Shown here: in pieces, positions 1,617-64,000 of the stretch
Layout of the letters: each line of letters begins with the position of its first letter
How positions within the stretch are numbered: the stretch's first letter is position 1
Sequence record: PZ496580.1
Strand: one strand, 5' to 3'
Length of the DNA stretch: 64,000 nucleotides
Source: a phage
Program-made: the position numbers and the translations under genes
The notes under the pieces: model-generated
Database searches by the model: none
Told to the model about the DNA's origin: nothing
What the model saw: only the letters and a program-made list of their open reading frames with translations

Positions 1617-1638
1617 CCGCCATTATACACACTTTATC

Positions 1639-4317
1639 TTAAATGTCAAACAGGTCAGTAAGCGATGCAACTTTTTCGTATTGCAGCTTTGCAGCCGTGG
1701 TAATGTTCTCCAGTGGTTTGACGAAAGTCTTATTGAACAACAAAGGCCAGTCCAACCACTTCAACACCTCTGATTCAATTTCTGGCGGAATACGAGTACC
1801 GGACAACCAACCAAAACAGATTTCTCCAAACGGATTTCGATCTTTAAGCGGTACAATCATAACCTTCTCGCCTTCACGAATCGGATCTAGTCCGAATTTT
1901 CTGGCATTACGATTATAACACAATACACTCTTAACCGCATACGGACAACCCTTAATCGGATACCCGTTTGAATCGCTGTATTTCTGTAGGTTGTTTGCAG
2001 ATGATACAGCAGCAACCTCAAGATAATCAAGTTTTCTAAATTCTTGCTCAAAAATACCGTAGTATTCCTGCAATGACTCTTCCCCTTCCTGCAACATACG
2101 GCGAATACATTCTTTCAGTGATTTCTGACATGCTTTAGGGGTAGAGCTACGTTGCGTTTCCAAGCCCATGATTTTTAGCTTAGGTTCAGCAAAGCGTGTT
2201 CCTTCCATATCCCAAACATTAAGAGCATAACGCTTTTTACCAGTCCAGAATCCACCGATACCCGCAGATTTCAACGGAGGACCAGCAATTGCCTCACGGT
2301 CCATAAACATCAAGTGCTCATAGTTGTTCATGTACTCGCATAACTCGCGATATCCTTTGTCGATAATCGGTTCCATTCGATGTTTACCGAAATTATCAAG
2401 GAAGTCAACAAGTTTTTCGGTATCGTCGAAACGATCTTCCCCGCCAACCTTATCAACAACATTGTTAACCAGCACATAAACGGAGTCAGTATCACAATAA
2501 CGAACATATGCAAAATCGGTTGTTCCGCAAAGCTCGTTTAAGTATTCGTTAATCTTACGTTCAATCCACTGAATTGCAAGCTGACCGAACAGTGTGATCG
2601 CACTAGCGTTACGGAGATCATAAAAACGGAATTTAGGATTCCCCAACGCACCATAGAGGGAGTTGATCAAAACTTTTCGAGAAAGCTGGTTTGTATTGCA
2701 CAAGATCGACTCGTCTTTACATTCTTCCAGCAATTTCTCTAAGGCATCTTTACTTAATTCAGAAAGCATCGATTTAAACGCTTCATCGAAGTCGTGACGC
2801 ACTTCAACGCTATAGCTAATGGTTCCCCCATAAACATGATTTTCATCGTGTAGAATCGCTTTACAGAGTTCAGCATTGCGATCACACGCCAACATCATGT
2901 TTTTGTACTGCTTACGCTGATCGAATACCTTTTTAATCTCAATCGGTACGATACCATGAATATCTTTTCGATACATCCACCCGTTAGGCGAGCAAGAATA
3001 CTCATCACTCGGACGTGGTGCAGTTTTATTGATATACTCGTGCATCGGTGCAGCATCAAAAGATCCAGCGATTGTTTCAGGCGAAATATTAACCTGTCGA
3101 ATAATAGATGGGTACAGACTTGTTAAGTCAAAGCTCATCATCCAACGGTAAGCATTCGGCACAGGTTCTTTTACAAATGCGCCCGGATACGTCTGCTTAG
3201 GCTGTATCTTATTTTCCGGTACTACTTTACCCTCAGCTTTCAGAGATCCGAAGATAATAGCATCCCATACTTTCATCGGGTTATAAACATGGTTAAATTT
3301 AATCTTTGCATAGAAACATAGGCTATACACCAGATCAATAAAGCCACGCTTTTTATCAATCGCCAGCACACGGTCAACGTCGCCGATGTTATAATCGATG
3401 TAAAGTTGATGGTTATCATCACGCAATTTCTTTAACGGACCATCATAATCAACCTTACCGATTCCTGTCTCATATTCAGCAACATAATCTAACGCATATG
3501 TTGGTTGAGTCGTAAAGCTAAATTTCTTGTACAAGTCAATGTAATCAAGGCTTTCGATCCCCATGATCGTAAATGCTTCACGCTCGTTGCCAAAATCATC
3601 CTGTGAGATTCGGGATTTAATCTTACCGCACGGGCTTAGACGGTTAGCGGTTCTACTTCCGAACTTATTACTGATACGTTTAATGATATATGGAATATCG
3701 AATGTTTCTGTGTTCCAGCCAGTGAAACCAACTGGTCGGTTTTCCTCAAAGAATCGGATGTATTCTAACAGCAATTCATCTTCTGTGTCATAGACGTTAT
3801 AAACAACGCGCTCTACAATATCAGGTCGAAGAATAGACTTGCTTGATTCCCAGATTTCACCGTTTTTTCCTTTCAAATCAAATACAAAGAAACGATCATG
3901 TACGGAATCATAATGCGTAATTGCATCGATGGGATATTTCGCTTCTTCTGGTTTAGGAAATTCCGGGGCAGTGACCTCAATATCAACCCATGCTACACGG
4001 ATTTTATTTCGGTCATATCGAATCTCGCCTTTATACGTATCGGACAGATAGGAGATGATAAAATCATCCATCCCTAATGCCTCTTGCCCCATTTCTCCCA
4101 TCTTTTTACGCCATTTGTTGGCCTCGTTCATAGATGGGAATTTTTTAGCAATGCAAGGCTTGCCATAGATATCTTTATAATTCGTAACCATACTCGGTGC
4201 GGCATGATGAAATAAAGTTGGCGTATATTCAACGTAACGCTCTTGTTCTTGTCCAGCATCATCAATATAACGCTCGTAGATCTTATCACCCACTCGCTCA
4301 CATGACAGAAAATACAT
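1639..4317 (-). CDS. 43: DNA polymerase gp43 (family B, with 3'-5' exonuclease)
   Basis: ~893 aa from ATG at 4317 (AAGGAG RBS 8 nt upstream); colinear with T4 gp43 (DIEV exo motif, SLYPSIIRQVNISPET, YCDTDS polymerase motif). Confidence 0.95.
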   Translation of the reverse strand: MYFLSCERVGDKIYERYIDDAGQEQERYVEYTPTLFHHAAPSMVTNYKDIYGKPCIAKKFPSMNEANKWRKKMGEMGQEALGMDDFIISYLSDTYKGEIRYDRNKIRVAWVDIEVTAPEFPKPEEAKYPIDAITHYDSVHDRFFVFDLKGKNGEIWESSKSILRPDIVERVVYNVYDTEDELLLEYIRFFEENRPVGFTGWNTETFDIPYIIKRISNKFGSRTANRLSPCGKIKSRISQDDFGNEREAFTIMGIESLDYIDLYKKFSFTTQPTYALDYVAEYETGIGKVDYDGPLKKLRDDNHQLYIDYNIGDVDRVLAIDKKRGFIDLVYSLCFYAKIKFNHVYNPMKVWDAIIFGSLKAEGKVVPENKIQPKQTYPGAFVKEPVPNAYRWMMSFDLTSLYPSIIRQVNISPETIAGSFDAAPMHEYINKTAPRPSDEYSCSPNGWMYRKDIHGIVPIEIKKVFDQRKQYKNMMLACDRNAELCKAILHDENHVYGGTISYSVEVRHDFDEAFKSMLSELSKDALEKLLEECKDESILCNTNQLSRKVLINSLYGALGNPKFRFYDLRNASAITLFGQLAIQWIERKINEYLNELCGTTDFAYVRYCDTDSVYVLVNNVVDKVGGEDRFDDTEKLVDFLDNFGKHRMEPIIDKGYRELCEYMNNYEHLMFMDREAIAGPPLKSAGIGGFWTGKKRYALNVWDMEGTRFAEPKLKIMGLETQRSSTPKACQKSLKECIRRMLQEGEESLQEYYGIFEQEFRKLDYLEVAAVSSANNLQKYSDSNGYPIKGCPYAVKSVLCYNRNARKFGLDPIREGEKVMIVPLKDRNPFGEICFGWLSGTRIPPEIESEVLKWLDWPLLFNKTFVKPLENITTAAKLQYEKVASLTDLFDI

Positions 4318-4349
4318 AATATAAACTCCTTCACTTACGAAAGACACTC

Positions 4350-4378
4350 ATTATAGGGGAATCGACTTAGTTTGTCAA
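4350..4378 (-). promoter_or_regulatory. sigma70-type promoter upstream of gene 43 (TTGACA-17-TATAAT), enclosed by a 7-bp inverted repeat ATAGGGG/CCCCTAT
   Basis: minus strand reads ggTATTGACAaactaagtcgattccccTATAATgagtg then AAGGAG RBS and ATG at 4317. Confidence 0.6.
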
Positions 4379-4399
4379 TACCCCTATCCCATCAGTATC

Positions 4400-4762
4400 T
4401 TAGCGTCCGATCTGATACTTTTCGATCAGTGTCCATTCTTCTTTCTGTTTGAAAGACAGTACACGGAAATTATTAACTTCGGTAGTTTCAAAATCACTAT
4501 CAATCAGGGTACACAGATTCCACTGCGCAAGAAGTTTTGCAATGTTATTACGGCGTAATTCATCTTCCCACGTCATTTTAACACTACGACCATCTAATTT
4601 CAACAACTCCTTGAAATGAACGATGTAATAGCGCCCCTTCTTCTGGAGAATATGACAAGACTGATACAGTGTCTTGTCTCGATTGTTGGTAATGCCGCAG
4701 CGGGTTAAAGTCTCCTTAATTTTAAGGAAGTTTTCAGGATTAATCAAATTAATTTCAATCAT
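4400..4762 (-). CDS. regA: RegA translational repressor of early genes
   Basis: 120 aa; recalled T4 RegA similarity (LYQSCHILQKKGRYYIVHFKE, NNFRVLSFKQK). Confidence 0.9.
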   Translation of the reverse strand: MIEINLINPENFLKIKETLTRCGITNNRDKTLYQSCHILQKKGRYYIVHFKELLKLDGRSVKMTWEDELRRNNIAKLLAQWNLCTLIDSDFETTEVNNFRVLSFKQKEEWTLIEKYQIGR

Positions 4763-4763
4763 T

Positions 4764-5342
4764 TTACCACCTTTCTATAATCTTTTTAAGTCGTTTCCTT
4801 TCTGTCTGATTCTTAGTAACACCCGCCAAAAGTTCATCGGTCGCATACGGTTTAATGTGCTTCAATAACTTGTCCATATATCCCTTTTCATTAGCCAAAT
4901 CGAGATAAAACCGGGCGTCATCCATATTTACACAATATGCTTTCGCCACTGCCATTAAAACCAATTTTTGGTCCAATTCTTCTGTTAGCTTAGCCCATTT
5001 ACCGTATCGTTTCCCCTTAGAAATACTCTGTAAGAGATAATCAAAATGCATTTGATCTGGGAGGCCATGACCGATTAAATTCATCACATACGCGCTATAT
5101 AGGCAATCTGCGTGCTGGGAAAGAGCGGTGTTAATCCATCTCTGATTGTATGCAGAATTGTTCCCAACATTAACGCGCTGTTTATCTAAGGTGATATGAT
5201 CCATCAGAGCAAACAATGCATTGTCGGTTTTCTCGGTGAATGTGTCCGCTAATTCAGACACCTTTTCCCAATCACGAGAGCGCCATGCAATTTCATGCTC
5301 GTTTAATTGTGTATCATCTTCACCGAAAAATTGACCTAACAT
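4764..5342 (-). CDS. 62: clamp loader small subunit gp62
   Basis: 192 aa; recalled T4 gp62 similarity (QLNEHEIAW, KGKRYGKWAKL, VTKN...LKK..ERW); directly upstream of regA. Confidence 0.85.
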   Translation of the reverse strand: MLGQFFGEDDTQLNEHEIAWRSRDWEKVSELADTFTEKTDNALFALMDHITLDKQRVNVGNNSAYNQRWINTALSQHADCLYSAYVMNLIGHGLPDQMHFDYLLQSISKGKRYGKWAKLTEELDQKLVLMAVAKAYCVNMDDARFYLDLANEKGYMDKLLKHIKPYATDELLAGVTKNQTERKRLKKIIERW

Positions 5343-6381: not shown

Positions 6382-7068
6382 TTAGTCGGTGTAGCTGGAG
6401 TCAAGGTCACACGCGATCATATAAGATACGGTTTCACTTGCCAGCCATACAGCCTTACGGCGAGTGAAGCTCAGTTTGTAATCGCCGAAGTCAGTAGCAA
6501 CCAGTTTCATGTTATCTTTACGAATAAAGAAATGGAAGTCGGCGGTTCCGGCATATTCGCCCATGTCAAGACAAAACATCTCATTCGGATTATTTTTGTC
6601 AATCTCTTCCCAGCCTTTGATCATAAGACGACCATCAATCGGAAGAAATTCAAGGCGGTCCACTTTAAGCTGATTGCTCATTTTCATAAGCTGTTTCAGA
6701 TCGTCGTTGCTCAGTTCGTAATCTACATCGCTTGCAGGTGGAGTAACTCGGCCTTTCGGTGATACGATAGCAGCAGCACTAGCACCAGGATAATTAATTT
6801 TCAGACGATCGTTAGACACACGAATGTTACCAGTGCGGTTATCAACCGTAATATCTGCTTCATCACCTACCAGATTCAGAATACCCAGGAAAGAGTTAAG
6901 ATCATAGATCCCAATTTCGTGTTCCAGTTCTTGATTCAGAGTCGCTTCACCATATACAACGTTTGTCATGTTTTTGGTGATCAGGACGTTTCCTTTTTTC
7001 AGGATGATACCTGGGTTAATAGCGGAAAAGTTTTTCAGGGTAGCAATGGTTTCTTTAGTAAGTTTCAT
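6382..7068 (-). CDS. 45: sliding clamp gp45
   Basis: 228 aa; recalled T4 gp45 similarity (LKNFSAINPGIILK, IYDLNSFLGIL); synteny 44-45. Confidence 0.9.
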   Translation of the reverse strand: MKLTKETIATLKNFSAINPGIILKKGNVLITKNMTNVVYGEATLNQELEHEIGIYDLNSFLGILNLVGDEADITVDNRTGNIRVSNDRLKINYPGASAAAIVSPKGRVTPPASDVDYELSNDDLKQLMKMSNQLKVDRLEFLPIDGRLMIKGWEEIDKNNPNEMFCLDMGEYAGTADFHFFIRKDNMKLVATDFGDYKLSFTRRKAVWLASETVSYMIACDLDSSYTD

Positions 7069-7098
7069 CAAATCACCTTTATCATGTTAATCAATTAA

Positions 7099-8119: not shown

Positions 8120-9788
8120 TCATTTCAGTGAATCGCCCACGTTTAACCATCTTGAGATGACGGCTAAAATCATCAGGGTTATGGTCACGATGGCTGATAA
8201 TATACACGTTATCATCTAACTTGTCAATGATGGAATCAAGTGCTTTTACGCCTTGAACGTCCGTAGCCCCATCATAAATTTCGTCGAGTACCAACAAAGA
8301 AATATTAGTACCAGATACTTTACCAGCAACATCACGCCATGTAAAGAGCATCGCAAGGTCAATACGTGCTTTTTCGCCTTGACTGAATGATGTATACGAA
8401 AACGATTCACGCCCCCGTGATTTAATTGTCTCGTTAAACTCTTCATCTAACGTAAAGATATAATCCGCTTCCATGATATCAAGATAATACGCAATCCGAT
8501 CATTGAAATATGGAATATATTTCTTGACGATAGACGCCTTAACACCGGAATCTTTCAACATTTCTGTTACAAATCCACGATGATATTTTTCAAGAACTAG
8601 CTTTGATTTTTCATTAGTAATCTCTACCAGTTCGTGTTCCAGTTTAGCAAGTTCTTCGGAATTGTCAACCCTTTCTTTTTGTAATTCCTGAATTGCTTTC
8701 TGGATCTGTTTAGCCCGACCTACAGATGCCGTTAAATTCGCTCTCTGTGACTCTATAGCGCGTTTAATTTCCAATACCTTAGTTTGTGCTGTCTGGAAAG
8801 AATTGGCCTTCTCTGCGTATTCTACGCGTTTCTCGTCAATCAGAGACAGTTTATGTTCTGCTTGTGCTTTTTGTTCTCGTACAGCCTGATCATTACCTTG
8901 AATGATCGGTTGTGTGCACGTAGGACAGACCCCGCCTTTCTCATGCATATGAATAACACGGTCAAAGTTCTGGATCTGCGCACCAATCTGTGCGATAGCC
9001 GTATTAATTTTAGCCAATGCCGCGCTAGGATCTTCCGGCATAACAACAGCCAATAGCTCATCGGTCAAGCGCGTTTCTTCGGCTTTAAATGCTTTAGCCG
9101 ACTCTACCTCTTTATCATACATATTCTGTAAACGCTGGAGATTCTCGGCACTCGCCTTGCTAGCGTCTTCTATGTACTTTTTATGAGTGTTGATTTGTTG
9201 CTGAACGTGATTAGCTTTCATTTCCTGCATTTGGATATTCTGGGTTATCTCGCGCACATACGCTTTATTCAGTTTATCCATTTCGCCTAGCGTAGCAATA
9301 TCAAGCAAATCCTCGACCAGTTTACGGCGACCCGCTGCCGGAAGACTCATAAACGGAACATAACCAGCAGTGCCTAAAACAACGATCTGTTTGAAGCTGG
9401 CTAGGTTCATGCCTATGATACCTTCAAAATATTCCTGAAAGTCTTTGGTGCTTGCGCTCTCATCGATCTTTTGACCGTCGCGATGCACTTCGAATACTTC
9501 CGGCTTTTGTCCACGTTTAATATAAAATTCTTTCCCGTCCAGTTCAAACCAGACTTCGACCAACAGTTTCTTTTTGTTGACGCTGTTAATCAATTGGCCT
9601 TTCTTGATACTACGAAACGGTTTACCGAACAACACAAAGCAAAGCGCCTCGATCATTGTTGATTTACCAGCACCGTTAACACCAGTGATTAGTGTCTTTT
9701 TGAATCCGTCTAGCTGAATCTCTACAGGTTCAGCACCCACGCTCATTATATTTTGATAGCGCAAGGTTTTAAAATTTAACTTTGCCAT
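8106..9788 (-). CDS. 46: recombination endonuclease subunit gp46 (SbcC/Rad50-like ATPase)
   Basis: Walker A ITGVNGAGKST, C-terminal LVLDEIYDG D-loop; colinear with T4 gp46 (KYQNIMSVG, RGQKP, EKYHRG, FNETIKSRGRE). Confidence 0.92.
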   Translation of the reverse strand: MAKLNFKTLRYQNIMSVGAEPVEIQLDGFKKTLITGVNGAGKSTMIEALCFVLFGKPFRSIKKGQLINSVNKKKLLVEVWFELDGKEFYIKRGQKPEVFEVHRDGQKIDESASTKDFQEYFEGIIGMNLASFKQIVVLGTAGYVPFMSLPAAGRRKLVEDLLDIATLGEMDKLNKAYVREITQNIQMQEMKANHVQQQINTHKKYIEDASKASAENLQRLQNMYDKEVESAKAFKAEETRLTDELLAVVMPEDPSAALAKINTAIAQIGAQIQNFDRVIHMHEKGGVCPTCTQPIIQGNDQAVREQKAQAEHKLSLIDEKRVEYAEKANSFQTAQTKVLEIKRAIESQRANLTASVGRAKQIQKAIQELQKERVDNSEELAKLEHELVEITNEKSKLVLEKYHRGFVTEMLKDSGVKASIVKKYIPYFNDRIAYYLDIMEADYIFTLDEEFNETIKSRGRESFSYTSFSQGEKARIDLAMLFTWRDVAGKVSGTNISLLVLDEIYDGATDVQGVKALDSIIDKLDDNVYIISHRDHNPDDFSRHLKMVKRGRFTEMNVNI

Positions 9789-10032
9789 TAATCCACTCCG
9801 CAATCACACATTCCATAATATTAAATGCTAACACATCTTCATCAATGTTGTAAACACTTGCCGCCTTCACTTTAACTAATGTGTCTCTGCGATCTGGCAA
9901 CATGATAACATAATCCAGTGTCGCCGGATCATATGTCATAAAGGGGTCAATATAAACCCCTTTATTCAATGCCAGATATTCGCGAAGACCTTCTATAACC
10001 CTGTGTCTAAGGTAGGTCATCGATAGAATCAT
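9769..10032 (-). CDS. hypothetical protein
   Basis: 87-aa ORF between 47 and 46. Confidence 0.45.
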   Translation of the reverse strand: MILSMTYLRHRVIEGLREYLALNKGVYIDPFMTYDPATLDYVIMLPDRRDTLVKVKAASVYNIDEDVLAFNIMECVIAEWINGKVKF

Positions 10033-20340: not shown

Positions 20341-20369
20341 ATTATACATTAGCTAATCAGGTTGTCAAC
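20341..20369 (-). promoter_or_regulatory. early sigma70-type promoter (TTGACA-17-TATAAT)
   Basis: minus strand TTGACAacctgattagctaatgTATAATgctcacatcgaaaacaacgagagg. Confidence 0.6.
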
Positions 20370-25811: not shown

Positions 25812-26624
25812 TCAATCTACGTTAGTTACATAAACTTCTTGCGTATCAGAAGACTTGCCACCTGAACGATCTAGGCAATAGGTCTTATTCAACAGGACGC
25901 AGTTTAAATCGTTCCGCTTGATAAAGTCAAGAAGATGATCATTTACCTTTCCCTTATGATGTGTGACATTACTGATACCAAACTGAAAACCACGCGCCAT
26001 AATAGATTCTACCCACTGATAGAATTTAATCTCTTCCTCGTCACTCCAGAACTTATTATATTCCGCAGAAGTGATAAGGTACGGCGGGTCCAAATAAACG
26101 AAATCACCTGGCAAGATCTCGATCTCGTCATATCGTCCAGAAGTAAAATTGATTCGACCGTCTTTGTTTTCTTCTTTAAAATTCAGGACACGCTCTACCG
26201 CGTTTTCGTTAAAAGTCCGGCGACCAAAGTTAGCATTAAATTCGCCCTTCCGGTTATGGCGGTTAATGTTGCTAAAACTATGCTGAATCAACACAAACAG
26301 AGATAGCGGATCTGGATTCTCGTTATACTTCTTGCGGAATGCCATATAAGAATCTTTATCATCACGAGACAAACCATTCTCGGCAATAATCCGCTTGATC
26401 GTAGAAACCGGATCAGGACACTCGTCAATCGCTTTGTACGCGTCAATTAAGCGGTGATCATAGTCATTAGCCAGCACATCCCCTTCGACGTACAGAGACA
26501 CGCTCAAGCCGCCACAAAAGGCATCAACAAAGCGGTTATAGTGCTTAGGGAAATACTTACTAACACCAGGCAATAACTTTTCCTTATTGCCCGTATAGGG
26601 AATTAAACCTAATGCTTTCTTCAT
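25812..26624 (-). CDS. dam: DNA adenine methyltransferase (Dam family)
   Basis: YTGNKEKLLP, FVDAFCGGLSV SAM motif, DFVYLDPPYL catalytic motif; near-colinear with T4 Dam. Confidence 0.9.
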   Translation of the reverse strand: MKKALGLIPYTGNKEKLLPGVSKYFPKHYNRFVDAFCGGLSVSLYVEGDVLANDYDHRLIDAYKAIDECPDPVSTIKRIIAENGLSRDDKDSYMAFRKKYNENPDPLSLFVLIQHSFSNINRHNRKGEFNANFGRRTFNENAVERVLNFKEENKDGRINFTSGRYDEIEILPGDFVYLDPPYLITSAEYNKFWSDEEEIKFYQWVESIMARGFQFGISNVTHHKGKVNDHLLDFIKRNDLNCVLLNKTYCLDRSGGKSSDTQEVYVTNVD

Positions 26625-60641: not shown

Positions 60642-61629
60642 TGAAAATAGTGTGATCTATCGCTCAATCATTACTAGTAAATTCAGAACGGAAAAACTTC
60701 TGAATTTCTATAATTCTGTAGGCGATGGGGCAAATCAAATTACAATTTATGGAACGTTTGGACGTTCGGAGCCGTGGTCAGAAAACGAAAAAGAGGTGGG
60801 CTTTGCCCCACCTTATCCAACCGACTCAACGGCTGGCGTTGTTGATATGTGGACCCATATGATGGGGGCGGTTAAGATTAACAAATCACTTCTTGATGCG
60901 GTTATCCCTCGTAAAGATTGGGGTGATACCGGACAGGATAACCCGCGCACGTTCTTTATCAATGACATTGTTGTCGTAAACTCAGCACCATATAACCGTA
61001 CAGATGTTGGTAGCGGCTGGATGGTGTATCGCGTAACCGATGTTCCTGATCGCGGTTACTGCTCGATTTCAAGCATTGACGCTAAAGTAGAGTGTTTGAA
61101 GCTGGGCGGAAAGTGGACACCTACTCATGAATCAATCGCGCCACCTGTAGGAAAGGGCGATTCTATTGATATGGGTGATGGGTATCGTTGGGAATATCTG
61201 TACACAATTCCACCTGATGCGGCGATCAACCGTTGCACCAATGAACATATTGTTGTTCCATTCCCAGATGAATTGAGACAAGATCCGGCGCGTTGGGGAT
61301 ATGATAATGTGATCACCTGGTATAATGACTATAATCTGCTTTATCGGCTGAAAGTAGTAACTTTGCGTTTTCAGGCTTATATGGACTCAGCGCAATTCCC
61401 AACTACCGCGTTAGTGGGTAATACTGGCTTCCGTCAGTTAAGCATTATCCTTAACCCATTGGAAAAGAAAGCACGCCCTAGCGATCCAGATGTTAAAGCG
61501 GTTAAAGATAAGTACCGTCCGCAAGACTTAGAGCCACACTCAGGAGAAATGATCTACATGGAAAACCGACAACCTATCGTTCGGTCATTAGATCAAACAG
61601 AACTTGTTTCTGTATTGTTTGAGTTCTAA
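60634..61629 (+). CDS. 8: baseplate wedge protein gp8
   Basis: 331 aa (T4 gp8 ~334 aa); synteny. Confidence 0.7.
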   Translation: MANENSVIYRSIITSKFRTEKLLNFYNSVGDGANQITIYGTFGRSEPWSENEKEVGFAPPYPTDSTAGVVDMWTHMMGAVKINKSLLDAVIPRKDWGDTGQDNPRTFFINDIVVVNSAPYNRTDVGSGWMVYRVTDVPDRGYCSISSIDAKVECLKLGGKWTPTHESIAPPVGKGDSIDMGDGYRWEYLYTIPPDAAINRCTNEHIVVPFPDELRQDPARWGYDNVITWYNDYNLLYRLKVVTLRFQAYMDSAQFPTTALVGNTGFRQLSIILNPLEKKARPSDPDVKAVKDKYRPQDLEPHSGEMIYMENRQPIVRSLDQTELVSVLFEF

Positions 61630-61642
61630 GTGTATGATTTAA

Positions 61643-61670
61643 AAGCCAATTCGAGAGAGTTGGCTTTTTC
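61643..61670 (+). terminator. intrinsic terminator after gene 8
   Basis: aagccaa-ttcgagagag-ttggctt then ttttt. Confidence 0.55.
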
Positions 61671-61681
61671 CATTTTGGGGG

Positions 61682-61709
61682 TTGACAATCTTGTCTGATA
61701 AGGTATAAT
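61682..61709 (+). promoter_or_regulatory. sigma70-type early promoter (TTGACA-16-TATAAT) inside the late baseplate cluster
   Basis: gggggTTGACAatcttgtctgataaggTATAATgctcacatctaaacaacggaggataaattATG. Confidence 0.6.
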
Positions 61710-61738
61710 GCTCACATCTAAACAACGGAGGATAAATT

Positions 61739-61996
61739 ATGGCACGTCGTAAATTTACAGATAATTGTGAAGCAATTCAGGTATCCCCTTGCGGTTGGGA
61801 TGTGATCGCGAACGGTGAAAAGATCGGAGAGATCATCGATCATACTCATTCATCACTAGCCGATTACACCGATGAACTATGGGAGGGTATTAATTGCGCT
61901 AACGTAACCAAACGATTCAAGACTATTGATGAAGCTATACATTTTGTGTATAATCCAACTTTCGGTATGTGGAGTGATAGAAAATGGCACGCGTAA
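61739..61996 (+). CDS. hypothetical protein (first gene of inserted cassette)
   Basis: 85-aa ORF with GGAGG RBS. Confidence 0.55.
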   Translation: MARRKFTDNCEAIQVSPCGWDVIANGEKIGEIIDHTHSSLADYTDELWEGINCANVTKRFKTIDEAIHFVYNPTFGMWSDRKWHA

Positions 61997-62313
61997 ATAT
62001 TAAACTGCATTATACAATGGGTAAACCAAAACATCCAATGTATAAAGTGTTTTGGGGCTTGCATCTTCAAGAAAAATGGCACGATAACTATTGGTTTTGT
62101 GACCATGATAAGAAGTGGCATTCTCAAGATGAAGTTAATGCGATGATGGAACAGGGTATCAAATTTAATTACTCTAATTATGACCATAGCATTACTTGTA
62201 TTCGAAAATTAAAACGGTTTATTCGAAAGAATCCGCAATTTAAAAACTTTGTGTTCTTTATGTCTCATGTTTATTTGGGGCATAGCGTTACCGTAACAGC
62301 AAAGGTTAAATAA
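61984..62313 (+). CDS. hypothetical protein (His/Trp-rich)
   Basis: 109-aa ORF. Confidence 0.5.
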   Translation: MARVNIKLHYTMGKPKHPMYKVFWGLHLQEKWHDNYWFCDHDKKWHSQDEVNAMMEQGIKFNYSNYDHSITCIRKLKRFIRKNPQFKNFVFFMSHVYLGHSVTVTAKVK

Positions 62314-63152
62314 TGGCACGACTTTCTAAACAAGAACAAAAATTACACGATCGAGCAATGGAGTTGATTAATTCAGATCGTCCATTGACCTATGAAGAAA
62401 AAGAATTTTGCTATAACAACTATCAGGGCGATGGTCTAGGTGGTTCCGGTGCATTCTTTACCCCAGAAGGTCTTGCATGGGATTTTACCATCGATGCACA
62501 TTGCACAGGAAAAGTATTAGATCTTTGTGCTGGGATCGGTCGCTTATCTTTTTGTATGTTACATCGTTGTAAGCCAGAAAAGATCGTATGCGTCGAACTC
62601 AATCCAGAATTTGCGCGTATAGGTAAACGACTATTACCGGAAGCAGAATGGATCACCAGCGATGTATTCGAATTTGAGTCAAACGAAAAATTCGATGTGG
62701 TGATCAGCAATCCACCTTTCGGGAAAATCAATACAACCGACACAAAGGATGTATTTGAGTACACTGGCGGCGAATTTGAATTTAAGGTTATGACATTAGG
62801 CCAGAAGTTTGCCGATGTAGGTTATTTTATTGTTCCTGTTGGTTCCGCTGGTTTTGCCTATTCCGGTAGACCTTATTATGACGGGACCATGAAGTCTAAT
62901 AAATATCTAAAATGGAGCAAACAAACTGGTTTGGTGACTTATGCCGGATGTGGGATCGATACATCAATCTATCGCGATGAATGGCATAGTACCAACGTTT
63001 TAACAGAAGTGGTTGAGGTTCGGTATTACGAGAAAGAAGCCGTAGAAGCGCCTAAATCGCGTCCTAACGAACAAATAGAAGAAAGTAAGGAGATTACCTT
63101 ACCGAAACAGGAAAGCGAGTCTGGGACACTCTCAGATTTGTTTGACATTTAA
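62313..63152 (+). CDS. SAM-dependent amino-methyltransferase (N6-adenine/N4-cytosine type or HemK-like), gamma-type motif order
   Basis: motif I VLDLCAGIGRLSF followed by motif IV VISNPPFG. Confidence 0.7.
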   Translation: MARLSKQEQKLHDRAMELINSDRPLTYEEKEFCYNNYQGDGLGGSGAFFTPEGLAWDFTIDAHCTGKVLDLCAGIGRLSFCMLHRCKPEKIVCVELNPEFARIGKRLLPEAEWITSDVFEFESNEKFDVVISNPPFGKINTTDTKDVFEYTGGEFEFKVMTLGQKFADVGYFIVPVGSAGFAYSGRPYYDGTMKSNKYLKWSKQTGLVTYAGCGIDTSIYRDEWHSTNVLTEVVEVRYYEKEAVEAPKSRPNEQIEESKEITLPKQESESGTLSDLFDI

Positions 63153-63156
63153 TTAT

Positions 63157-63184
63157 AAGCCGTCCTTGTGGGCGGCTTTTTTGT
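63157..63184 (+). terminator. intrinsic terminator after methyltransferase cassette
   Basis: agccgtcc-ttgtg-ggcggct then tttttt. Confidence 0.6.
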
Positions 63185-63192
63185 ATGTATTT

Positions 63193-63200
63193 TATAAATA
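63193..63200 (+). promoter_or_regulatory. T4-type late promoter TATAAATA upstream of gene 9
   Basis: exact TATAAATA 27 nt before ATG 63228. Confidence 0.65.
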
Positions 63201-63227: not shown

Positions 63228-64000
63228 ATGGCACAAGTTCCAAAGAAAAGAATAGACACAGGTACTGTCGGCAATCCATCGACTGGCGATATCTTATATG
63301 ATGGCGGTAATAAAATTAACGATAACTTTGATTCAATATATGACGCATTTGCTGATCAGCGGTTTAAAGACGTAGACCACGGCGTAGGAAGAATGGTTAT
63401 TCATGCAACCGGATACTATCAGAAACATCCACGTCAAAGCTACGCTGGTTCCGCTGTTGAGATTGGGAGTCTACACGATATCGATACAACTCAAGGCGCA
63501 CTTATTGCTATTCTACCTAAAGCAAAGGTTGGTGAGGGTGTTGTATTCATAAATAGTAACGGTAGCCTTTCAACGACGACACCGCTCAATATTCGAACTC
63601 AAGCAGGTGATTCTATTAGCGGGTATTCCGGTGATGCTACAATAACACAACCATTTTCAAAAGTCACTGTTTGGTGTACTGCCGTTGAAGGTAGTCGCGT
63701 AACATGGCGATTGGGTATCGAAAGTATGTTTACCGATACAACAACGCCATTAGATAAAACAGTTAACGTAACTGGAGTAGCAACAAACGTTGCTATTGCC
63801 GCAAAAACAGAATACGTTTCCATCAAATTATTAACTACCGCTAGCAATACATCCGGTTCAAAAATGCGTTCAAGTGAAACGCTACTGATGATTGATTCTA
63901 AAGCCGGAAAAGTTTATGCGACGGAATATGCAGTTTTGCAGAAGACAGAAGATGAACTATACACGGTTCGTTATTTCATCGGTTCCGGCGATAAAGTATA
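63228..64000 (+). CDS. 9: baseplate wedge / tail-fibre connector gp9 (partial, runs off window end)
   Basis: colinear with T4 gp9 (KKRIDTGTVGNPSTGDILYDGGNKIN, IHATGYYQKH, FINSNGS, EYAV). Confidence 0.85.
   Translation, partial: MAQVPKKRIDTGTVGNPSTGDILYDGGNKINDNFDSIYDAFADQRFKDVDHGVGRMVIHATGYYQKHPRQSYAGSAVEIGSLHDIDTTQGALIAILPKAKVGEGVVFINSNGSLSTTTPLNIRTQAGDSISGYSGDATITQPFSKVTVWCTAVEGSRVTWRLGIESMFTDTTTPLDKTVNVTGVATNVAIAAKTEYVSIKLLTTASNTSGSKMRSSETLLMIDSKAGKVYATEYAVLQKTEDELYTVRYFIGSGDKV

Follow-up and report, generated by a model that had tools for sequence, protein, structure and literature searches.

The interval between baseplate genes 8 and 9

We analysed a 64,000-nucleotide (nt) stretch of phage DNA (PZ496580.1; here called the window) from a Krischvirus, an RB49-like, pseudo-T-even coliphage, taking as our subject the interval between baseplate genes 8 and 9. 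This interval, which is 97.7% identical to that of GEC-3S and 97.4% identical to that of RB49, carries a cassette of three genes, the last of which encodes a methyltransferase (MTase) whose C-terminus closely resembles that of the phage's own DNA polymerase. All elements of the interval lie on the plus strand. The end of gene 8 (Pfam Phage-Gp8, E = 1e-143) at 61629 is followed by an intrinsic terminator at 61641-61668, which a terminator scan and RNA folding place at -17.1 kcal/mol (z = -4.3; 0 of 200 shuffles equally stable). A sigma-70 consensus early promoter occupies 61682-61709 (TTGACA at 61682-61687, a 16-nt spacer and TATAAT at 61704-61709) and matches the consensus at 12 of 12 positions. 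The window contains seven perfect TTGACA-N15-18-TATAAT sites where chance would give 0.08, and of the seven only this one is on the plus strand. The leader (61710-61738), with a GGAGG Shine-Dalgarno sequence at 61727-61731, reads GCTCACATC..AAACAACGGAGG; its GCTCACATC..AAACAACG pattern is common to a minus-strand cassette at 20368, where it again stands behind a perfect promoter and gives an exact match to the 37-nt promoter-plus-leader pattern.

Three open reading frames (ORFs) follow: ORF1 (61739-61996; 85 amino acids (aa), phrog_16603) and ORF2 (61984-62313; 109 aa, phrog_12630), which are ORFans, and the MTase ORF (62313-63152; 279 aa). Each begins with ATGGCACG (M-A-R; at 61739, 61984 and 62313). 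A second intrinsic terminator at 63157-63178 (-15.9 kcal/mol, z = -4.1; none of 200 shuffles as stable) closes the early unit, and a T4-type late promoter, TATAAATA at 63193-63200, precedes gene 9 (Pfam T4_gp9_10_N), which starts at 63228. Every element given in a preliminary description of this DNA, from the gene ends, terminators, promoter and leader to the M-A-R starts, the MTase motifs and the late promoter, was found where it had been placed, and its view of a self-contained early-type (sigma-70) unit within late baseplate genes holds, with a promoter of its own and terminators on both sides. The cassette promoter and both terminators are already annotated in the GEC-3S record. As to the starts, gene 9 begins with ATGGCACAA (M-A-Q), and an MA(K/R) start is kept across the MTase family, including distant phages and prophages.

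The methyltransferase core and its C-terminal tail

The 279-aa protein had been proposed to be an S-adenosylmethionine (SAM)-dependent amino-MTase with gamma-class motif order, and Pfam profiles, motifs and the AlphaFold2 fold all support this. The catalytic core comprises residues 1-244 (62313-63044) and contains motif X (GAFFTP, 62448-62465), motif I (LDLCAGIG, VLDLCAGIGRLSF, 62517-62540) and motif IV (NPPF within ISNPPFG, 62709-62720); GAFFTP, LCAGIG and NPPF are invariant across the MTase family. A class I SAM fold, the motif order X, I, IV and a (D/N)PP(Y/F) motif are thus combined as in the gamma class. The AlphaFold2 model, built on a 28-sequence alignment, is confident for residues 1-244, with a mean predicted local distance difference test score (pLDDT) of 83 overall and most of the core >90, and treats residues 245-279 as disordered (pLDDT <50). 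The Pfam matches were MTS (E = 1e-9), Methyltransf_25 and Eco57I, the last just above its cut-off (27.4 versus 25.3), while N6_Mtase fell below its own (16.8 versus 20.4). Pfam, NCBIfam and PDB sequence searches returned generic SAM/NPPF matches only.

To decide between DNA, rRNA and protein (HemK) MTases, the preliminary description had suggested a profile comparison, and its outcome was mixed. The identities with PrmC/HemK (NCBIfam TIGR03534, 37.6 bits against a cut-off of 199.1) and RsmC (NF007023, 29.2 bits against 295) were rejected, as was TrmN membership, for which no NCBIfam cut-off was reached. Since the PrmC and RsmC scores lie 5- to 10-fold under their cut-offs, the GenBank labels "release factor glutamine methyltransferase" and "rRNA guanine-N2 methyltransferase" are unsupported. 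The MADS DNA MTase MAD2, the best PADLOC match (E = 1e-16, residues 44-139 only; type II DNA MTases came next), scored better; PADLOC holds DNA MTases only. The longest structural alignments of the model are to DNA MTases. No S-subunit gene was found near the MTase gene by ORF and profile analysis of the window, and no restriction endonuclease lies beside it, ORF1 and ORF2 having no profile match and a sister lineage (described below) having the MTase alone. The protein is best read as a putative orphan gamma-type N6-adenine DNA MTase, for which both the DNA substrate and the adenine N6 target are predicted from sequence and fold.

The preliminary description missed the C-terminal tail, which is of a clamp-binding type. 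Behind the core, a disordered acidic and proline-rich linker (residues 245-271, 63045-63125; pLDDT <50) leads to the terminal TLSDLFDI and stop codon (63126-63152), our proposed binding peptide for the gp45 sliding clamp. The MTase ends ..ESGTLSDLFDI and the gp43 DNA polymerase ..KVASLTDLFDI. This gp43 (1639-4347, minus strand; 902 aa) has the Pfam DNA_pol_B and exonuclease domains and is 58% identical to RB43 gp43; its last eight residues, SLTDLFDI (1642-1665, minus strand), sit where gp43 of T4 and RB69 has its gp45 clamp-binding peptide, and the RB69 peptide has been co-crystallised with gp45 (PMC3012046; PDB 1b8h). When the C-termini of all 315 window ORFs of at least 60 aa were scanned, a DLFDI ending occurred in gp43 and the MTase only, and the scan otherwise gave two weak pattern matches. 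The T4 termini (gp43 SLDFLFG, gp55 SLDFLYEAND, gp33 TLDFLL) share the consensus (S/T)LDFL, and the MTase of the sister lineage ends TLDFVDFSEI. The proposed docking partner, gp45, is encoded at 6382-7071 on the minus strand and was located by tblastn with RB43 gp45. That RB43 protein, as recorded (L015, NC_007023, 6395-7036), has 213 aa and ends ..CKILFRKWRCLRGCT; it fails to align to the C-terminal region of either T4 or window gp45, which suggests a frameshift or annotation problem.

The MTase motif resembles the phage's gp45 ligands in being hydrophobic and acidic and placed at the extreme C-terminus, and it is carried on a flexible linker that tolerates change; the clamp epitope of gp55 is likewise joined through a linker divergent in sequence and length (PMC2988020). 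Within the genus, core, linker and motif are 98.3, 92.5 and 100% identical, and the motif is invariant in six of six Krischvirus copies compared. Among divergent orthologs at the gene 8-9 site the corresponding values are 68, 17 and 58%, with linkers of ~8-41 aa. As judged from these alignments, the motif stays constant while its linker drifts, which is characteristic of a short linear motif on a tether.

A tail that serves as a clamp handle would be expected to differ in homologs from phages that use other clamps, and it does. T4-type copies have a variable acidic or proline-rich extension with a conserved C-terminal motif in the homolog alignment, and a third tail, (D/N)LFTF(T/R)IE, is conserved in T4 relatives of the RB43/KP15 type. 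From 80 IMG/VR loci, ~40 homologs (40-46% identity, on contigs of 15-67 kb) have a proline- and alanine-rich linker and a clamp-type end such as QLDLFGxAA, QLSLFDAA, QADLFGVAA, QxSLFGDAA or QLDIFEQIA; further prophage and temperate-phage homologs end in QLTLF or QLGLF. The tails of these IMG/VR, prophage and temperate-phage homologs fit the beta-clamp consensus QLxLF, a motif often located at the C-terminus (PMC4549789), whereas the window MTase lacks the glutamine and has a gp45-type motif instead.

In 38 loci of this kind, 34 of 2,465 ORFs end in a clamp-type motif; 28 of the 34 are the MTase and two are an ORF beside a DnaB helicase gene. An exhaustive profile search gave 1,031 family members, of which 143 representatives have a complete domain and 56 a tail of at least 12 aa. 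QxxLF occurs within the last 12 residues of 23 of the 56 tailed representatives (41%) and of 4 of 1,801 control ORFs (0.22%; Fisher p ~1e-33), and [LIM]F within the last 10 residues of 66% of them against 4.9% of the same controls (Fisher p ~3e-32). A scan of bacterial genomes found that tail type follows host taxonomy: QLSLFDAA in Pseudomonas; Q(A/P/H)SLFG(D/E)AA, QADLFGxAA and QLSLF in Rhizobiales and Brucella; RQLVLL in Labrys; RQAALFA and RQLDMFESM in Betaproteobacteria, including Burkholderiales prophages; ..(A/T)LF and EQLDLFTA in Actinobacteria; and no tail in Enterobacterales and most Bacteroidota. One record labelled Flagellimonas marina (L116, NZ_JBHSCL010000010.1) encodes an MTase of RB43 type that ends AQNLFTFTIE; this DNA is probably the genome of a T4-type phage within a bacterial assembly rather than Bacteroidota DNA. 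Most proteobacterial tails close with two alanines past the clamp motif (..LFDAA, ..LFGDAA, ..LFGVAA; loci L060-L096 and L117-L182). ClpX-type C-terminal degrons, e.g. the ssrA tag, resemble such ends, and by this analogy the two alanines may add proteolytic control.

The genomic contexts of the homologs are mobile and often replicative. In RB43 and KP15, the MTase gene lies between the helicase gene 41 and the primase genes 61.1/61; in one contig (L072) it starts at the end of a DnaB-type helicase gene; and in another (L087) a replication module combines a phage-encoded DnaN beta clamp, an MT-A70 MTase, a Prim-Pol/helicase and the clamp-tailed MTase. Enterobacter and Citrobacter have a tail-less copy on the outer edge of a prophage or prophage remnant, where Pfam annotation finds no nuclease immediately beside the MTase, although the Citrobacter island has an HNH protein ~5 kb upstream. 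From these contexts, the family is that of an orphan MTase of mobile elements, usually sited with replication genes.

Two side observations concern these loci. The L087 contig (~63 kb, viral) encodes its own DnaN with all three Pfam domains and has the MT-A70 MTase gene immediately upstream of the clamp-tailed MTase gene (4129-5184 and 9408-10001). In L072 (7891-8562) and L073 (9098-9772), a 223/224-aa ORF without Pfam match has the clamp-like ends RQGEMFA and RQGELFSGEAA; in L072 it ends at the start of the DnaB helicase ORF and in L073 the MTase lies directly downstream of it. This ORF may encode a helicase loader or an initiator that has a beta-clamp handle of its own.

Age and make-up of the cassette

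The preliminary description held that the unit had been recently acquired, and proposed as a check whether genes 8 and 9 are normally adjacent in related phages. In T4 they are, 63 bp apart, and relative to T4 the cassette is therefore an insertion; in closer relatives they are not, the whole interval being present at the same site in ~58 Krischvirus phage records at 95-98% identity. An uncultured metagenomic sister lineage (L097), whose DNA is only ~72% identical to any Krischvirus, has the order gene 8, terminator, TTGACA-17-TATAAT, M-A-R-starting MTase, terminator, TATAAATA, gene 9, so that the late promoter is conserved there too. ORF1 and ORF2 are absent from its gene 8-9 interval. Conservation of the unit at this position across relatives had been named in advance as the observation that would tell against recent acquisition, and that proposal is refuted. 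The gene 8-9 interval is an old, vertically inherited early transcription unit of the promoter-early stem-loop (PeSL) type.

PeSL cassettes are known from RB49 and phi1 (Arbiol et al. 2010, PMC2839356; Comeau et al. 2014, PMC4122927). Other PeSLs have been shown experimentally to have strong promoter and terminator activity, a stem-loop upstream of the promoter is one listed subclass, and a few PeSLs sit inside virion modules beside genes without assigned function (PMC2839356). At the gene 8-9 interval, the stem-loop is joined to the promoter, the gene 8 hairpin lying upstream of the 12/12 sigma-70 site, 13 nt from its -35 box, and the element stands between an upstream stop codon and the Shine-Dalgarno sequence and start of an ORFan. 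Modular exchange, the remaining mark of a PeSL, is seen in the replacement of ORF2 alleles and in the discrete ORF1-ORF2 module, both described below. By its sequence, the regulatory architecture of the cassette is of the published PeSL type, with promoter and terminator activity predicted here.

The three cassette genes do not form one module, as is evident from their different distributions and from exact homology breakpoints. The rV5-like phage FV3 has both ORF1 and ORF2 (~70% aa identity), which overlap there at an identical junction, and FFH2, also rV5-like, carries ORF2 alone; no MTase lies near either in these two phages. The DNA homology with FV3 begins within the leader, at window position 61712, and ends exactly at the stop codon of ORF2 (62314); that with the sister lineage starts at 62311, the MTase start. 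These exact breakpoints identify ORF1-ORF2 as a discrete module inserted at the TAATG junction. By distribution and breakpoints, ORF1-ORF2 and the MTase are of separate evolutionary origin, a point absent from the preliminary description. We take the MTase gene to have founded the unit, and ORF1-ORF2 to have slotted in later between the leader and the MTase start.

At the nucleotide level, the ORF1-ORF2 pair is ~74% identical in some rV5-like (Vequintavirus) coliphages, an unrelated myovirus lineage (L006, FV3, 3001-3575; L007, FFH2, 3001-3330), which is evidence of gene exchange between phage families infecting the same host. The FV3 counterparts of ORF1 and ORF2 begin MSL and MAH, respectively. 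Within Krischvirus, as compared between the window and Phi1, JSE, ECD7 and others, there are two ORF2 alleles, ~98% and ~73% identical in aa sequence to the window copy; ORF1 and the MTase remain >92% identical where the ORF2 alleles differ, which indicates replacement of a single gene inside the cassette. The ORF2 family comprises only 5 clusters among 5.8 billion proteins. Neither ORF1 nor ORF2 had a match in Pfam, NCBIfam or PADLOC, and the AlphaFold2 model of ORF2 (pLDDT 55) was too poor for a fold search. In RB43, KP15 and Aeromonas phage 65, the small ORFs that precede the MTase gene were compared with ORF1 and ORF2 and are not their homologs. In the RB49 reference (L002, NC_005066, 2606-2852), ORF1 is broken into two small ORFs (RB49p140 and RB49p141), and the window has an interval 11 bp longer; a frameshift, a deletion or an error in sequencing accounts for this in the type strain.

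Proposed clamp tethering, its alternatives and related systems

Its polymerase-like C-terminal peptide probably tethers the MTase to the sliding clamp, which would make the enzyme one member of a family whose tails are matched to the clamps available; both the binding and the methylation are predictions. This reading builds on the anatomy of the locus and its conservation, the identity of the terminal motif with that of gp43, the pattern of clamp-type tails across the family, the fold and the contexts in replication modules; the enzyme would physically bind gp45, act on DNA at adenine N6 and bring the phage some benefit. Under such a mechanism, the MTase would be made early by host RNA polymerase, its tail would dock on gp45 clamps loaded on replicating phage DNA, and the docked enzyme would methylate nascent DNA at or behind the fork. 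Phage DNA with unmodified cytosine could then be marked fast, for protection against restriction or distinction from host DNA. The modification or anti-restriction role that the preliminary description had suggested for the cassette is plausible. Slightly less firmly, but still on balance, we extend the reading to the family as a whole: >1,000 orphan DNA adenine MTases of phages and prophages would be coupled to replisomes through a swappable C-terminal clamp-binding peptide, QLxLF for the beta clamp or the phage's own DnaN, and a gp45-type motif in T4-type phages, copying the terminus of their own polymerase.

Several observations weigh against clamp tethering of a DNA MTase. Besides the limit on the PADLOC match given above, compact rRNA N6-methyladenine (m6A) enzymes (METTL5, PH1948 and KsgA/Erm) score nearly as high as DNA MTases by fold, and the AlphaFold2 model has no evident separate target-recognition domain beyond the ~244-aa core. 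The window gp45 is only 34% identical to T4 gp45; with T4 numbering as a bridge, the RB69 pocket residues are only in part conserved in it (R32K, Y39 kept, I107V), the rest are uncertain and the C-terminal region aligns unreliably. In RB43 and KP15, gp43 ends SLN(T/D)LFG(D)DW (and in RB43 gp33 and gp55 end TLDDFM and TLEMFL), so that the MTase tail (LFTFTIE) is similar in type to, and not the same as, the gp43 tail (LFGDDW). The MTases of the T4-type Aeromonas phages 65, AS-zj and others have no tail, and all enterobacterial prophage copies stop right behind the catalytic domain; given such tail-less homologs, tethering would be optional for the family. The TTGACA shared by the gp43 and MTase gene ends makes a PeSL-derived scar conceivable, and part of the identity could stem from PeSL recombination. 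Finally, nucleoside analysis of Krischvirus TB34 by high-performance liquid chromatography/mass spectrometry detected no modified DNA; TB34 carries the cassette, yet no modified nucleosides were reported (PMC13390438). This result excludes bulk or non-specific methylation. Sparse site-specific m6A in TB34 is probably compatible with it, because the m6A expected from the host and phage Dam enzymes goes unmentioned in the same study.

An alternative in which the 279-aa protein is an RNA or protein MTase (PrmC/HemK-, RsmC- or METTL5-like) that retunes host translation, with a tail unrelated to DNA, is in our judgement unlikely. It could draw on the fold similarity to the compact rRNA enzymes, but the NCBIfam scores for PrmC and RsmC are far under their cut-offs and those matches span the generic SAM/NPPF segment only; DNA MTase models score better, the longest structural alignments point the same way, and clamp-type tails together with replication contexts are sensible only for a DNA-acting enzyme. 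A further explanation takes the tail to be without clamp function, its identity with the gp43 terminus being a by-product of PeSL recombination or chance and the shared TTTGACATTTAA being promoter-derived. Both genes end in the 12 nt TTT GAC ATT TAA, which contain TTGACA, the final 14 nt are identical, and at the gp43 locus the TTGACA in the F-D-I codons forms the -35 box of the perfect promoter that follows (1649-1622, minus strand); moreover, PeSLs have been documented as hot spots of recombination in RB49 and phi1 (PMC2839356). As an observation in its own right, codons of a clamp-binding terminus and a promoter element for the next gene use the same bases at 1622-1665 (minus strand). The match, however, runs five residues further upstream, (S/T)-L-(T/S)-D-L, where the shared L, D and L are encoded differently in the two genes (CTT/CTC, GAC/GAT and CTG/TTG), and no -10 box stands behind the TTGACA in the MTase gene. 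Furthermore, the motif is invariant while the linker drifts, and ortholog tails whose sequences are unrelated to the promoter-derived stretch are clamp-type as well (TLDFVDFSEI, LSMFDI, LFTFTIE and QLSLFDAA). Given the codon differences and the independent ortholog tails, we rank a scar origin low.

A tail that does bind the clamp might also serve mainly a regulatory or competitive function, in late transcription, polymerase exchange or, for the beta versions, host replication, with methylation secondary. The binding sites on gp45 are limited in number and shared by gp43, gp33, gp55 and the clamp loader (PMC2988020), expression is early and from a promoter of consensus strength, and no modification was detected in TB34 DNA, all of which would suit such a function. 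All catalytic motifs and at least 50 core positions are nevertheless invariant in the >1,000-member family, which argues for selection on catalysis, and the commonness of tail-less members indicates that the core works alone; we regard a mainly regulatory tail as improbable. The least probable of the alternatives, to which we give very little credence, is a modification or anti-restriction module that was acquired recently and came to lie between genes 8 and 9. The adjacency of these genes in T4, the terminator-flanked unit with its own promoter and the different locus of the MTase gene in RB43 and KP15 speak for it, but the unit occupies this site in ~58 Krischvirus genomes and in a sister lineage only ~72% identical in nucleotide sequence, and ORF1-ORF2 and the MTase differ in distribution and have exact homology breakpoints.

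If clamp tethering holds, it would matter in several ways. RB49-type phages replicate very fast with ordinary cytosine, without T4's hydroxymethyl-cytosine shield, and a clamp-riding MTase would offer an explanation of how the marking of nascent DNA could keep pace with its synthesis. A methyltransferase would be added to the short, well-studied list of gp45 clients, and replication-coupled methylation, whose mechanistic documentation is so far mainly eukaryotic, would gain a bacterial and viral form as a counterpart of Dnmt1-PCNA. The exchange of tails across the family to suit the available clamp is a clean natural experiment and directly testable. For annotation, "release factor glutamine methyltransferase" and "rRNA methyltransferase", as the MTase gene is named in GenBank, lack support.

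Other MTases are encoded by these phages. The Dam that the preliminary description had noted elsewhere is indeed present, as a Dam-type MTase of the Pfam D12 class (DPPY) at ~25812-26624 on the minus strand; it ends ..QEVYVTNVD, without a clamp-type tail. The two enzymes differ in that the cassette MTase has a gamma-type NPPF motif and Dam an alpha-type D12 DPPY motif. The orphan MTases of phages such as T4 Dam are, like the cassette enzyme, phage adenine MTases without a cognate nuclease. A third annotated MTase, RB49p189 of RB49 (L016, 1791-2507; 238 aa), lies outside the window; it is annotated "DNA methyltransferase", has no Pfam match and carries FDGSG and FPPC motifs resembling those of C5-cytosine MTases. 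Krischvirus SAP has heavily modified cytosines whereas TB34, 99.96% identical, has none (2026 paper, PMC13390438), and RB49p189 may be worth examining with regard to this difference.

The cassette itself is already known and annotated, and the novelty lies in the MTase tail; the PeSL papers (PMC2839356, PMC4122927) do not discuss the gene 8-9 cassette, its MTase or the tail. In common with described PeSLs, the element pairs a sigma-70 promoter with a stem-loop terminator, drives ORFan-type genes and is tied to modular exchange; unlike them, it is stable across the genus and the sister lineage, without recent flux, and only ORF1 and ORF2 vary. The nearest enzyme class is that of the gamma-class N6-adenine DNA MTases (M.TaqI, M.BseCI, type I HsdM, MmeI, lmo1582 and MAD2), from which the cassette enzyme differs in its ~240-residue core without a separate target-recognition domain, in having no partner S or R subunit, and in reaching a Pfam cut-off only for MTS, Methyltransf_25 and (barely) Eco57I.

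With regard to the tail, the closest likeness is to the epitopes of T4/RB69 gp43, gp55 and gp33, which are also hydrophobic and acidic, at the extreme C-terminus and on variable flexible linkers; the described gp45 clients, however, are the polymerase, the late sigma factor and its co-activator, the clamp loader, RNase H and ligase, whereas the carrier here is a predicted DNA methyltransferase. Among proteins of mobile elements, transposases of insertion sequences, Tn7 TnsE, Tn3 TnpA and group II intron proteins likewise have a short, often C-terminal QLxLF (PMC4549789), but these are transposases or reverse transcriptases and the prophage homologs described here are methyltransferases. A search of the open-access literature gave no prior report of a bacterial or phage MTase that binds a clamp. 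A functional parallel is the eukaryotic coupling of Dnmt1 to PCNA (reviewed in PMC9690074), in which a DNA methyltransferase is brought to newly replicated DNA by a short clamp-binding motif. Dnmt1 is a C5-cytosine maintenance enzyme with an internal PCNA-interacting (PIP) box, whereas the enzyme considered here is an amino-MTase with a C-terminal motif suited to gp45 or beta clamps, and the two are not homologous.

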